64,000 nucleotides of DNA from Escherichia coli (GTDB lineage: Bacteria > Pseudomonadota > Gammaproteobacteria > Enterobacterales > Enterobacteriaceae). Location of the stretch: assembly GCF_003334765.1 (NCBI RefSeq), contig NZ_QOWT01000016.1. One strand, 5' to 3'. Each line of letters starts with the position of its first letter. The first letter of the stretch is position 1. The notes under the pieces are model-generated. The model was not told where the DNA came from. It was given only the letters and a program-made list of their open reading frames with translations, and did no database searches. Shown one piece after another: positions 56,438-59,165 of the stretch. The translations under genes were made by a program, and so were the position numbers.

Positions 56438-58972
56438 TTAATTACTACCAAACATATCCTTGATCCAACCGGCTACACCGTCGCTGTCTTTCTGCTCTTG
56501 CTGAGCAGGTTGCTGTTGCGGCTGTTGCTGCGGCTGAGAAGACTGATCAAACGGATTGCCTGACGGCTGCTGCTGCATCTCGCTCTGCTGGCACAGCGAT
56601 TGCGGATCGCTGGTCCAGACCGGCAAGATACGCATGCCACCGCTGCAAACAAAGTTGCCGTCGTAGTCCACGCCCATATCTGCAATATCTTCTGGCGGAA
56701 CAAGATTCAGCGGCGTTGGCGTCTGGTTAGCCAGATAACGCTGATAAATCGACATTGCCCCGCTGGCACCATACAGTTTGGTCGGCTGGTTGTTATCACG
56801 GCCGACCCAGGTGATGGTCACCGTGCTGCCGTCAATGCCCGCAAACCAGGTATCTACGTTATTGTTGGTAGTCCCTGTTTTCCCTGCCAGATGCAGGTTC
56901 GGGTATTTCGCCCCAAGCTGACGACCCGTACCGCGTTGTACCACCTGCTGCATGGTCCATAGTGTCAGATACGCCGCCTGCGCCGGAACAGCGCGTTCCG
57001 CCTGCGGGAAGCTCTGATACAGCACTTTGCCATCTTCCGCGATTACCGAACGCAGCGCAGAAAGCGGTGCACGGTTACCACCGCTGGCGATGGTCTGGAA
57101 TGCCTGCGCCACTTCGATTGGCGTTAAGTTCAACGCCCCCAGCAGCATTGCCGGAACCGGATGCAACTGATCTTTCGGTACGCCCAGTTTAATCCAGGTC
57201 TCCGTAACCGCAGGCAGCCCCAGCGCCATCCCCAGATTTACCGTCGGCACGTTCATCGAACGGGTCAACGCATCCACCAGCATCACTCTGCCGCTTTCGC
57301 TATAACGACGGTCATCATTCTGCGGTGACCAGACCTGGCCATTCGGCTGACGCAGCGCAATTGGCGCATCCGCAATCCACGTATTCAGACGATAGATTTT
57401 CGGCTGGCTTAAGGCCGTCAGATAAGTCGCTGGTTTTGCAAGGGAACCAATCGAACGACGCGCCTGCATCGCACGGTTGTAGCCCGCAAACTGCGGCTCA
57501 GAACCTCCGACCATCGCACGAACTTCACCACTAAAGCGGTCGACGACCACAATCGCAGTTTCAAGATCGCTCAACTTACGCTGTTTCTTCAGTGCCGGAA
57601 TGCCTTCCACGGCGGCTTTTTCTGCCGCGTCCTGGGCCACCGAGTCAAAGGTAGTGAAGATCTTCACGCCGGAGAGATCTTTTACCTTATCGCCCAGTTT
57701 TGCCTGCAGCTCCTGACGCACCAGTTGCATAAAGGCTGGCTGAGGAGAGATCACCCCACCGCGCGGCTGAACCCCCAGCGGACGGGCACTCAACATGTCA
57801 TAGAGTTCTTGATCAATAATCTGTTGCTGTTGCAGCAGACGCAGCACCAGATTACGTCGCTCCAGCGCCAGTTTTGGGTTACGCCACGGGTTGTAGATGG
57901 ACGCCCCTTTCACCATACCGACTAACAGCGCCTGCTGGTCGAGGCTTAGCTCTTCTACCGGGCGACCAAAGTAATACAAGCTTGCCAGCGGGAAGCCGCG
58001 GATTTCGTTGTCGCCGCTCTGACCGAGATACACCTCGTTCATATACAGCTCAAGAATACGGTCTTTGCTGTAACGCGCGTCCATGATCAGCGCCATGTAA
58101 GCTTCGTTCGCTTTACGCCAGTAAGAACGCTCGCTGGAGAGGAACAGGTTTTTCACCAGCTGTTGCGTCAGCGTACTCGCACCCTGTACCGTGCGTCCGG
58201 CGGTCAGGTTTGCCAGCACCGCACGTCCGATTGAGTAGAGACTGATTCCATCATGCTCGTAAAAATGACGGTCTTCTGTCGCCAGCAAAGTATCCACCAG
58301 CAAATCCGGGAAACCACTGCGCGGCACAAACAGACGCTGCTCACCGTTTGGCGAAGAGATCATGGTGATCAGACGCGGATCAAGACGGAAGAAACCGAAC
58401 TGACGGTTGTTCTCCATATTGACGATCGTCGCCAGATGATCGCCATCAAAGGTCAGACGCGCGCGCACCTGTCCTTCTTTACTGTCCGGGAAATCAAACG
58501 GACGGCGAATCATCTCAATGCTGTTGGCCTGCACGGTAAATTCGCCAGGACGGGTCATTTTCGACACCTGACGATACTGGGTCGCCTCCAGCAGCTTCAC
58601 CATCTCGTTCTTGCTGATGGTCATGTCTGGCTCAAGATTGACCATTCGGCCATAAACTGCCGCAGGCAGTTGCCAGACCTTGCCATCAATACGGCTACGA
58701 ATTTTTTGATCGAGATAAACGCCGTAAATGGCGATCAGCACGGCAAAAACGATAGCCAGTTTTAGCAGTAGCCATAGCCAGCCGCGTTTGCCACGAGGCT
58801 TACGCCCTTTGCCTTTGCCCTTACCTTTGCGCGGCATCGGTTCTTCATCCTCATAGTCATCATAATCGTCGTAATCATCGTCATCTTCGTAACGACGACG
58901 GCTTACCTTTTGTTTGACCGGACGCGTCGGTTTCCCTTTGCGTCCAATTGGCTCGCGGTCATTCCCGGCCAT
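56438..58972 (-). CDS. mrcB: penicillin-binding protein 1B (bifunctional glycosyltransferase/transpeptidase)
   Basis: 844-aa product from the ATG preceded by GGAGA ([15 protein letters not shown]); the ORF-track TTG start is 5 codons upstream; internal Met46 is the known start of a shorter isoform. Confidence 0.95.
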
Positions 58973-59039
58973 GCTTTTTCTCCGCAATATTCAGGCGCAA
59001 AAGCCCGATTTTCTGTTCTTCTGTTACAAGACAGAAGAA

Positions 59040-59165
59040 GATATCTCTCAAAATTTGTGCTCGATCGGTCCCCTCTCCCTTGAGGGAGAGGGTTAGGGTG
59101 AGGGTGAACGTGCGCGCTGATGCCCTCACCCCGGCCCTCTCCCACAGGGAGAGGGAGAAAACCAA
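59040..59165. repeat. GC-rich triple-hairpin intergenic repeat (boxC-like)
   Basis: Three palindromes: ccctctcccTTGAgggagaggg, gggtgaggg...ccctcaccc and ccctctcccACAgggagaggg, in the mrcB-hrpB spacer; family assignment is from memory. Confidence 0.6.

Follow-up and report, generated by a model that had tools for sequence, protein, structure and literature searches.

The charged, low-complexity segment at the N-terminus of mrcB (ponB) in E. coli belongs to the known cytoplasmic tail of PBP1b, whose isoforms, internal start and recruitment to the division site have already been published. In the reading that we favor with moderate confidence, this tail is a disordered structure of three charge blocks that exists in two isoforms, with a KG-rich anchor next to the membrane and an acidic linker that is specific to the alpha isoform. 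The identity and anatomy of the tail, its predicted disorder, the conservation of its composition and the position of its internal start were established here for the gene in the window, a stretch of 64,000 nucleotides from contig NZ_QOWT01000016.1. The gene lies on the minus strand and is the K-12 allele of E. coli PBP1b. Its sequence is 100% identical over 401 nt to positions 164702-165102 of W3110, where the coding sequence is annotated as mrcB, and hrpB is located upstream of mrcB in the W3110 annotation, so that identity and synteny agree in the assignment of orthology. The coding sequence of the alpha isoform (56438..58972, minus strand) was defined by translation of the open reading frame and by the match to W3110, and it specifies 844 amino acids plus a stop codon. 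The Met1 codon is at 58972..58970, and a Shine-Dalgarno sequence, GGAG, can be read 7 nt upstream of this ATG (58980..58983, minus strand). The in-frame sequence LRRKS found upstream of Met1 is conserved in the orthologues because the ribosome-binding site located there is conserved.

The three blocks and the membrane helix follow one another on the minus strand. The N-terminal basic block, residues 1-28, has a net charge of +8 and consists of a conserved peptide, residues 1-14 (58931..58972), which is the published FtsA-binding determinant of alpha and lies outside the segment flagged by the initial annotation, and of residues 15-28 (58889..58930), which end in RRRY. It is followed by the acidic-aromatic block, residues 29-44 (58841..58888), found only in the alpha isoform and encoded by an imperfect 9-bp tandem repeat, and by the membrane-adjoining basic block, residues 45-64 (58781..58840), which carries a charge of +10, is shared by both isoforms and includes the KG repeat proper (58805..58828). 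The transmembrane helix extends from W65 to about residue 87 (58712..58780) according to AlphaFold2 and the Pfam family PBP1_TM (PF14812); residues 1-79 align with the entire model (positions 1-85 of 85) with a score of 90.4 and an E value of 9e-26. The initial annotation had correctly named the gene and placed the segment in the cytoplasmic tail, immediately ahead of the membrane helix and across the known internal start Met46 (58837..58835). The 40 residues that it quoted are present, but they are residues 25-64 (58781..58900) instead of about 30-70, and positions 58765-58780 of its interval 58765-58900, for which the minus strand had been left unstated, code for W65-L70, with which the membrane helix begins. 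A search of Rfam returned no match within 58765-58900, and the open reading frame on the plus strand at 58253..58765 is mechanical and unannotated; a hidden RNA element or antisense gene was therefore rejected. The only matches in Rfam were hairpins below threshold that fell on an intergenic palindrome at 59069-59155.

Sequence and composition statistics bore out the claim that the mrcB N-terminus contains an oppositely charged, low-complexity stretch. Thirteen of the 16 residues of the acidic tract are D or E, compared to 9.6% D+E in the remaining protein (binomial P = 2.5e-11, or 2e-8 after allowing for 844 positions), and half of the basic block is K or R (10 of 20 residues, P = 9e-6). When the tail itself was shuffled 200,000 times, the observed clustering of acidic residues was never reached. 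In the DNA, the acidic tract is an imperfect tandem repeat with a period of 9 and 4 copies (58857-58892) that codes for a unit of the D-D-Y type, and the KG tract is another with a period of 6 and 4.2 copies (58806-58830) that codes for K-G. AlphaFold2, run with an alignment of 39 sequences, predicted residues 1-62 as coil with pLDDT values of 47-57 and a helix at residues 63-95 with values of 81-94. Residues 1-52 are found in none of the solved PBP1b structures, in which no chain begins before residue 53. The predicted coil, the low pLDDT and the segregated charge blocks are the features of an intrinsically disordered block polyampholyte, and they place the PBP1b tail in this class. The enrichment of Lys and Arg in the approximately 20 cytoplasmic residues that adjoin the helix is that of a positive-inside segment. 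We infer from this placement that the KG-rich basic block, which is present in both isoforms, would act as the positive-inside determinant that holds the single helix in its N-in orientation, and that it probably rests on the anionic inner leaflet.

The conservation of the tail was analyzed in 80 Enterobacteriaceae species, which were sampled using residues 65-500 and hence were not selected on the tail, and in 19 further orthologues that brought the total to 99 Enterobacterales tails. All 99 have the three charge blocks, one basic (about +8), one acidic-aromatic and a second basic one at the membrane (about +9); the layout is thus shared by the 80 Enterobacteriaceae species and by Yersinia, Hafnia, Rahnella, Serratia-like bacteria, Pantoea, Erwinia, Mixta, Sodalis-like bacteria and Providencia. 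In the Enterobacteriaceae the N-terminal basic block has 28-30 amino acids and a charge of +7 to +9, the acidic block 10-19 amino acids and -8 to -16, and the membrane-adjoining block 18-28 amino acids and +8 to +10. The comparison of tail length and composition across orthologues that the initial annotation had suggested thus found both to be conserved, with tails of 58-69 residues in the 80 species. The ranges are broader in the complete set of 99 tails, where the N-terminal block has 28-33 amino acids (+4 to +9, mostly +7 to +9), the membrane-adjoining block has 12-28 (+5 to +12) and the acidic block has 10-35, with 35 in Hafnia, a 3.5-fold spread in length. An alignment of 39 Enterobacterales tails showed M1, P8, I9, G10 and R11 as invariant columns and at least 90% conservation of D5, R6 and E7, with no invariant column in the acidic and KG tracts. 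In the flagged tracts it is the composition alone, and not the sequence, that is conserved among the tails compared.

Beyond this order the picture is different. No acidic block was found in Vibrio, Pasteurellaceae or 150 diverse PBP1b relatives, whose tails are almost all purely basic, and these tails from outside Enterobacterales suggest that a purely basic tail is the ancestral state. The KG block resembles them. Within the order, Buchnera and Lightella have lost the whole tail, and Hamiltonella has kept the EPIG motif and lost the acidic block. The tail, conserved in composition in the orthologues above, can therefore also be lost. Within E. coli, the tail stretch was found once each in 5425 of 5426 complete genomes; over 135 nt, 5093 of these 5425 (94%) have an identity of at least 99%, and indels are rare, in-frame and 3, 6 or 9 nt long.

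These data bear on the idea that the D/Y and KG tracts are neutral low-complexity sequences, made and resized by slippage, with no function other than providing some tail. Such an origin would agree with the imperfect repeats of 9 and 6 bp, with a copy number that is not the same in all species and, in rare cases, changes among the sampled strains of E. coli, always by whole units, with the lack of an invariant position in either tract and with the loss of the tract in endosymbionts. However, a neutral tract would be expected to decay in composition and to accumulate frameshifts, whereas the three-block pattern is kept in 99 of 99 tails from several families, the acidic block always follows 28-33 residues, the charges of the blocks are bounded and 94% of the E. 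coli genomes are nearly invariant over the 135 nt, at the identity given above. We consider that pure neutrality has little chance of being the correct explanation.

The function of the N-terminal peptide is known from published work, from which the FtsA-dependent recruitment of alpha was taken. Only alpha PBP1b is enriched at midcell, through FtsA and with R6 as a critical residue, and the contact with FtsA relies on R6 together with the 14 conserved residues at the N-terminus (PMC13423804, 2026). The motif formed by R6, P8, I9, G10 and R11 was found in the first 14 residues of the tail in the window (58931..58972). The initial annotation had called the flagged stretch a plausible protein-interaction module; this holds in so far as the alpha tail recruits PBP1b via FtsA, but the determinant, R6 and the first 14 residues, lies upstream of the stretch. 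For neither the acidic nor the KG tract is a specific partner known, and the present analysis does not support one; the window encodes neither FtsA nor FtsN. The published study compared alpha, gamma and alpha(R6E) only and used peptides 1-60, 1-63 or 1-64 as a whole, and the word "acidic" is not present in it (PMC13423804).

In our preferred explanation, the acidic block (residues 29-44) is most likely a flexible, negatively charged linker present in alpha only. We infer a stand-off role for it: the linker would keep residues 1-14, the basic peptide that binds FtsA, away from both the anionic membrane and the membrane-proximal basic block, and FtsA could then capture this peptide at the division site. 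A linker of non-critical exact length is suited by the variation of the acidic block between 10 and 35 amino acids without compensation in the basic blocks (r = -0.17 in the 99 tails). The same correlation, together with net tail charges that range from -6 to +10, led us to reject charge compensation between blocks as a strict rule. Against this reading, Hamiltonella, with EPIG and without the acidic block, indicates that the N-terminal peptide can exist without the acidic block. What also counts against the linker is that a passive spacer leaves the aromatic residues unexplained. Tyr or Phe is found in 99 of 99 acidic blocks, where aromatics make up 15.7% of the residues versus 0.4% in the basic blocks, with a spacing of 3-5 residues, typically 4.

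The aromatics would be accounted for if the acidic-aromatic block were itself a binding motif, either a fuzzy acidic "sticker" for a basic divisome partner such as the cytoplasmic tail of FtsN or a segment that folds back on the basic blocks of its own tail and gates the FtsA-binding peptide. Their presence at regular spacing throughout the order argues for a sticker, since disordered spacers are normally without aromatics, and so does the stimulation of PBP1b by full-length FtsN, which has the cytoplasmic and membrane parts, and not by soluble FtsN (PMC4632607, PMC7939390). On the other hand, the block has no invariant column and varies 3.5-fold in length, and its Tyr may merely ride along as the 9-bp D-D-Y unit expands by slippage. 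In an AlphaFold-Multimer screen of residues 1-60, FtsA was placed on the N-terminal peptide and no contact with the acidic tract was described (PMC13423804). We regard a binding motif as possible, albeit rather unlikely. Earlier mutagenesis would point in the same direction as these objections. The 2001 study by Chalut et al. is reported to have scanned the tail with stretches of alanine and to have pinpointed no residues other than 1-6 and 11-13, which are outside the acidic block. The tail reportedly had no role in dimerization in that study, and a dimerization of tails via their opposite charges was set aside for this reason.

The gamma isoform begins at the Met46 ATG (58835..58837, minus strand), exactly at the boundary of the acidic and basic blocks. 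The codons of the acidic block would supply gamma with a GAGGA ribosome-binding site and an unstructured, purine-rich leader. The SD-like GAGGA, in codons Glu41-Asp42 (58848..58852, minus strand), is located 11 nt upstream of the ATG, a spacing that is longer than optimal; codons 29-45 are 67% purine, and within the 5' 1.1 kb the initiation region ranks at the 97th percentile of predicted accessibility. Two isoforms are thus expected from an in-frame ATG at codon 46 with an SD-like GAGGA upstream. That both starts are used was taken from the literature. Alpha and gamma were seen on blots as bands of 94.2 and 88.9 kDa (PMC13423804), and a Ribo-RET peak was reported at the Met46 start of E. coli mrcB (10.1101/520783). 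Ribosome profiling had been suggested in the initial annotation as a way to compare initiation at Met1 and Met46, and published data document initiation at both sites in E. coli (10.1101/520783) as well as at the equivalent site in Salmonella (PMC11005335).

An ATG is located at the acidic/basic boundary in 61 of the 80 Enterobacteriaceae species, and likewise in Yersinia, Erwinia, Sodalis-like bacteria and Providencia. Val stands at the aligned position in seven species, each of which encodes it with GTG; no conclusion on GTG as a replacement start was drawn from this because one mutational step leads from ATG to GTG and these lineages are related. Klebsiella pneumoniae and Leclercia have GTG, and Kluyvera and Phytobacter have no start codon at the boundary. 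The SD-like motif accompanies the start codon in 61 of 61 species with ATG and 7 of 7 with GTG, versus 7 of the 12 without a start codon there, in comparisons that are not corrected for shared ancestry. Synonymous entropy is low at codons 40-44, yet this is only the 7th of 72 windows. The sequence evidence for RNA-level selection near the internal start is weak. GAG is preferred at Glu31 and Glu32 too.

A role of the acidic tract mainly at the RNA level, with GA-rich codons serving as unstructured leader and SD-like site for gamma and the peptide being incidental, would be consistent with the position of GAGGA relative to Met46, with the presence of the motif in all 68 species that have ATG or GTG versus 7 of the 12 that have neither, with the predicted accessibility and with the published Ribo-RET peak. 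Nevertheless, a full acidic-aromatic block persists in the 12 species that have neither ATG nor GTG where Met46 aligns, from which it follows that a role in the RNA is not the whole story. Moreover, an SD and leader need only the last ~5 codons of blocks that have 10-35 residues, the amino acid composition is conserved while the codons vary, and the drop in synonymous variation is weak. It is hence improbable, in our opinion, that the peptide is incidental, and the alpha-specific linker, encoded by codons that may also assist the initiation of gamma, remains the explanation that we prefer.

PBP1b ranks among the major peptidoglycan synthases and is targeted by beta-lactams; whether it strengthens the division site against osmotic rupture is decided by its tail. 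The role of the tail, the two isoforms and the disordered, charged nature of the tail are already published, and the finding in itself adds no new biology. The Asp/Glu/Tyr block is conserved in composition and restricted to Enterobacterales, and its purpose, along with the reason for its ever-present aromatics, would refine the models of alpha recruitment and of the isoform ratio.

The closest known system is the published E. coli alpha/gamma PBP1b (PMC13423804, where Chalut et al. 2001 is cited as earlier work), which is the same gene with identical sequence, the same residues, the same two starts and a disordered N-terminus. The determinant defined there is residues 1-14 with R6, and the acidic D/Y and KG tracts were not separately dissected. 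PF14812 is also precomputed on enterobacterial orthologues and was not recorded on the Vibrio, Pasteurellaceae and Buchnera proteins examined; it is a family defined by sequence that makes no functional statement on the charged tracts. A GpsB-type motif, SRxxR[R/K], was considered and does not fit residues 24-28, which read SRRRY. GpsB is not known from proteobacteria. In Gram-positive class A PBPs, whose tails bind GpsB, and in mycobacterial PonA1, whose tail is phosphorylated (PMC4483258), a disordered cytoplasmic N-terminus likewise directs or tunes the enzyme at the site of growth or division. These tails differ in that their sequences are unrelated, their partners are others, they are basic or bear phosphosites and an acidic-aromatic block is not described in them.

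Another likeness concerns translation. Acidic nascent chains cause intrinsic ribosome destabilization, or IRD (Chadani et al., 10.1101/2021.02.02.429294; PMC11162784). By composition alone (13 of 16 residues D or E), mrcB shares with IRD sequences a dense run of Asp/Glu near the N-terminus, and it has both features that are reported to counteract the effect, namely a stretch of about 28-33 residues ahead of the run and bulky Tyr or Phe within it. The main text of neither study (10.1101/2021.02.02.429294, PMC11162784) names mrcB, and we treat the analogy as a lead only. On this analogy the acidic-aromatic block could be a conserved element of translational and electrostatic control by which the alpha/gamma ratio is set or, in a variant, a binding site for FtsN(1-33) or another basic tail of the divisome, a speculative idea to which we assign a low probability. 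The constant leader of 28-33 residues and the Tyr or Phe at every ~4 residues would then be the reported protectors against destabilization by the acidic nascent chain. The synthesis of alpha would sit at the edge of abortive translation and may fall at low Mg2+ or with destabilized ribosomes, while gamma, which starts just downstream, would be unaffected. If this were true, the pool of PBP1b at the division site would respond to ionic conditions.

The internal start itself has counterparts in infB and clpB. As in mrcB, an in-frame internal start with an SD-like site of its own gives rise to two N-terminal proteoforms in these genes, as detected by Ribo-RET (10.1101/520783). The cases differ in what the shorter product lacks: while a folded domain is dropped in genes of the infB/clpB type, the internal start of mrcB removes a localization peptide and the acidic linker from the tail of a membrane protein.

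A 401-nucleotide query across the site was 100% identical to W3110 164702-165102, annotated as mrcB with hrpB upstream, and the strain of the window is E. coli K-12. ORF listing and translation placed mrcB, the PBP1b gene, on the minus strand as an 844-amino acid open reading frame that runs from Met1 (58972..58970) to 56438. In the low-complexity interval 58765-58900 described in the initial annotation, positions 58781..58900 (minus strand) encode PBP1b residues 25-64, the amino acid string quoted there, and the remainder, 58765-58780, covers W65-L70, where the membrane helix begins. The cytoplasmic tail preceding this helix includes a basic block (residues 1-28, net charge +8), a 16-residue acidic-aromatic block (residues 29-44, net charge -13) and a 20-residue basic block adjoining the membrane (residues 45-64, net charge +10). 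Acidic residues occupy 13 of the 16 positions in the middle block, compared with 9.6% D+E in the remaining protein (P = 2.5e-11), while 10 of the 20 residues in the membrane-proximal block are basic (P = 9e-6), and shuffling the tail 200,000 times never produced acidic clustering as strong as that observed. The charged low-complexity tract had been correctly described, and it is not random. Tandem Repeats Finder identified imperfect repeats in the DNA of both the acidic tract (period 9, 4 copies, 58857-58892) and the KG tract (period 6, 4.2 copies, 58806-58830), so the low complexity probably arose by slippage, with D-D-Y and K-G as the repeated units. The Pfam family PF14812 (PBP1_TM) matches residues 1-79 across the entire model (E = 9e-26). 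An AlphaFold2 model built with a 39-sequence alignment predicted coil for residues 1-62 (pLDDT 47-57) and a confident helix for residues 63-95. All solved PBP1b chains begin at residue 53-58, so no structure shows the acidic tract. PBP1b has a second low-complexity tail at its C-terminus, a Gln/Pro-rich segment (residues ~800-835, window ~56468-56575, minus strand) that extends beyond residue 804, the end point of all solved structures.

Orthologues were sampled using residues 65-500 as the query, which makes the sample of 80 species-level genomes, all Enterobacteriaceae, independent of the tail. The initial annotation had proposed comparing tail length and composition among enterobacterial orthologues; the three-block layout was found, and block composition kept, in 80 of the 80 species. 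The N-terminal basic block has 28-30 amino acids and a charge of +7 to +9, the acidic block 10-19 amino acids, a charge of -8 to -16 and one to three Tyr residues, and the membrane-proximal basic block 18-28 amino acids and a charge of +8 to +10, for a whole tail of 58-69 amino acids (median 63). A protein search recovered the same layout in Yersinia, Hafnia (where the acidic block is 35 residues long), Rahnella, a Serratia-like cluster, Pantoea, Erwinia, Mixta, a Sodalis-like symbiont, and Providencia. Neutral slippage as a full account of the acidic and KG tracts is very unlikely, since the charge pattern is retained order-wide and the tracts are nearly invariant within E. coli: of 5425 genomes, 5093 carry a 135-nucleotide stretch with 99% identity or more, and the variants examined had lost, in frame, a single Asp codon or a single KG unit. 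In the 39-sequence alignment, M1, P8, I9, G10 and R11 are invariant and D5, R6 and E7 are at least 90% conserved; none of the invariant columns is located in the acidic or KG tract. Acidic blocks range from 10 to 35 amino acids, with no correlation between their length and the charge of the basic blocks (r = -0.17). In three database proteins (P0181, P0165 and P0219), the acidic tract is translated out of frame and the normal frame resumes later, or the protein is annotated with its start in this region; the cause is either sequencing error or genuine, compensated frameshifting within the repeats. Another, P0171, is a 550-amino acid E. coli entry named FhuD that combines a PF01497 domain with the first ~300 PBP1b residues, tail included, at 100% identity, and looks like a fusion or mis-assembly of neighboring genes.

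Tails of other taxa differ. They are long and purely basic in Vibrio and Photobacterium and short in Pasteurellaceae; the tail was lost in Buchnera and Lightella, and Hamiltonella kept the EPIG motif without the acidic block. Of 150 PBP1b-like representatives (50% identity or less), almost all have basic tails, and no comparable Asp/Tyr tract occurs in any of them. These comparisons of sequence point to the acidic block as an Enterobacterales innovation, gained with the N-terminal peptide on an ancestrally basic tail.

mrcB is among the most thoroughly studied genes of E. coli, and its charged tail has been described before. Division-site enrichment and activity are limited to the alpha isoform, the long form from Met1, for which FtsA is the proposed recruiter with R6 as a critical residue; the first 14 residues are conserved and have homologues only in Enterobacteriaceae (PMC13423804, Nat Microbiol 2026; preprint 2025). 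The first six residues were needed against lysis when PBP1a and PBP3 were both inhibited (Chalut et al. 2001, as cited in PMC13423804). The tail does have the suggested interaction role, located in residues 1-14 and not in the acidic and KG tracts for which it had been proposed (PMC13423804). The word "acidic" is absent from that article, and a literature search on the PBP1b tail, with most matches judged by title, found no published dissection of the D/Y tract.

The internal start, Met46 (58837..58835, minus strand), is located at the acidic/basic boundary and had been rightly recognized together with the gene. Retapamulin ribosome profiling recovered this site, mrcB being among three E. coli genes with previously characterized internal starts (10.1101/520783). 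The same proteoform pair was detected in Salmonella, where the authors call the 42-residue extension disordered, with a basic stretch and then an acidic one (PMC11005335). An ATG is present at the boundary in 61 of the 80 Enterobacteriaceae species, as well as in Yersinia, Erwinia, the Sodalis-like symbiont, and Providencia. The aligned column is GTG in seven species and neither codon in 12, which include Kluyvera, Phytobacter, Pseudescherichia, and Superficieibacter, the last with a GTG two codons upstream. A Shine-Dalgarno (SD)-like motif is found 8-17 nucleotides upstream in 68 of the 68 ATG/GTG species vs. 7 of the 12 without a start, counts made without correction for shared ancestry. The K-12 motif is GAGGA (codons 41-42), 11 nucleotides from the ATG. 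The mRNA of codons 29-45 is 67% purine, and for predicted accessibility within the first 1.1 kb, the stretch from -20 to +10 around Met46 ranks at the 97th percentile (Met1, 79th). Codons 40-44 show somewhat reduced synonymous variation, although the reduction is not exceptional. A role of the acidic tract purely at the RNA level is improbable, since some species retain the acidic block although they have no start codon there.

In all seven species with Val for Met46 (loci L039, L053, L057, L058, L061, L063 and L082, from Klebsiella, Kosakonia cowanii, Leclercia, and Silvania), the codon is GTG and the SD-like motif is kept, so a short isoform might still be made from this GTG. The lowest two-fold-codon synonymous variation in the first 200 codons among the 80 species is at codons 188-198 (~58379-58411, minus strand), with a mean entropy of 0.23 vs. 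0.64 overall, below the value around the internal start. Many Enterobacteriaceae (loci L010-L023 and many others) have an in-frame ATG six codons (18 nucleotides) upstream of the annotated Met1, right after a stop codon, a position occupied by an Ile codon in E. coli, for which the ORF lister picks TTG at 58987 (region 58973-58990). The conserved "LRRKS" upstream of Met1 coincides with its GGAG Shine-Dalgarno and spacer and, therefore, probably reflects a ribosome-binding site rather than coding sequence. The hrpB-mrcB intergenic region (~59060-59165) has a GC-rich palindrome (59078-59149) with 27-nucleotide arms, 81% complementary and 18 nucleotides apart. This palindrome is a member of a dispersed repeat (median copy number 5, maximum 14, among E. 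coli genomes), with only sub-threshold hairpin matches in Rfam, and we take it to resemble BoxC-type intergenic repeats. The spacer is 195 nucleotides in K-12 vs. 93-94 in ETEC1748 and AHM8C160RI, and the shortfall corresponds to the size of the element; judged from spacer length alone, the palindrome is probably absent from both.

We propose that the blocks have separate roles. The KG-rich block, common to both isoforms and seemingly to the ancestral state, would most simply be a positive-inside segment at the membrane that, by the established positive-inside principle, fixes topology and probably contacts anionic lipids. The boundary start generates the gamma isoform, whose tail is the KG-rich block alone. 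The acidic block, exclusive to alpha and situated between the FtsA-binding peptide and the membrane, probably acts as a flexible negative linker holding the basic N-terminal peptide off the anionic membrane, and its last codons probably double as the gamma ribosome-binding site. Such a linker would be consistent with the variable length of the acidic block, its lack of invariant positions and the absence of charge compensation. This account is weakest in explaining why Tyr/Phe is universally retained, as a plain spacer has no need of it: one or more aromatic residues are present in 99 of the 99 acidic blocks, aromatics represent 15.7% of these blocks vs. 0.4% of the flanking basic blocks, and their spacing peaks at 4. 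A fuzzy acidic-aromatic motif that binds, for example, the basic FtsN tail or the basic blocks of PBP1b itself would account for the aromatic residues, and we consider it unlikely, although less so than slippage or a purely RNA-level role.

Acidic nascent chains can destabilize translating ribosomes, an effect countered by ~30 preceding residues and by bulky residues near the acidic run (10.1101/2021.02.02.429294; PMC11162784); the main texts of these articles do not mention mrcB. The PBP1b acidic tract has both counteracting features, as it starts after 28-33 residues in every orthologue (99 tails) and has bulky aromatics interspersed. By analogy, translatability could explain both the constant lead and the aromatics, and there is a slim chance that the alpha:gamma ratio would respond to ribosome-destabilizing conditions.
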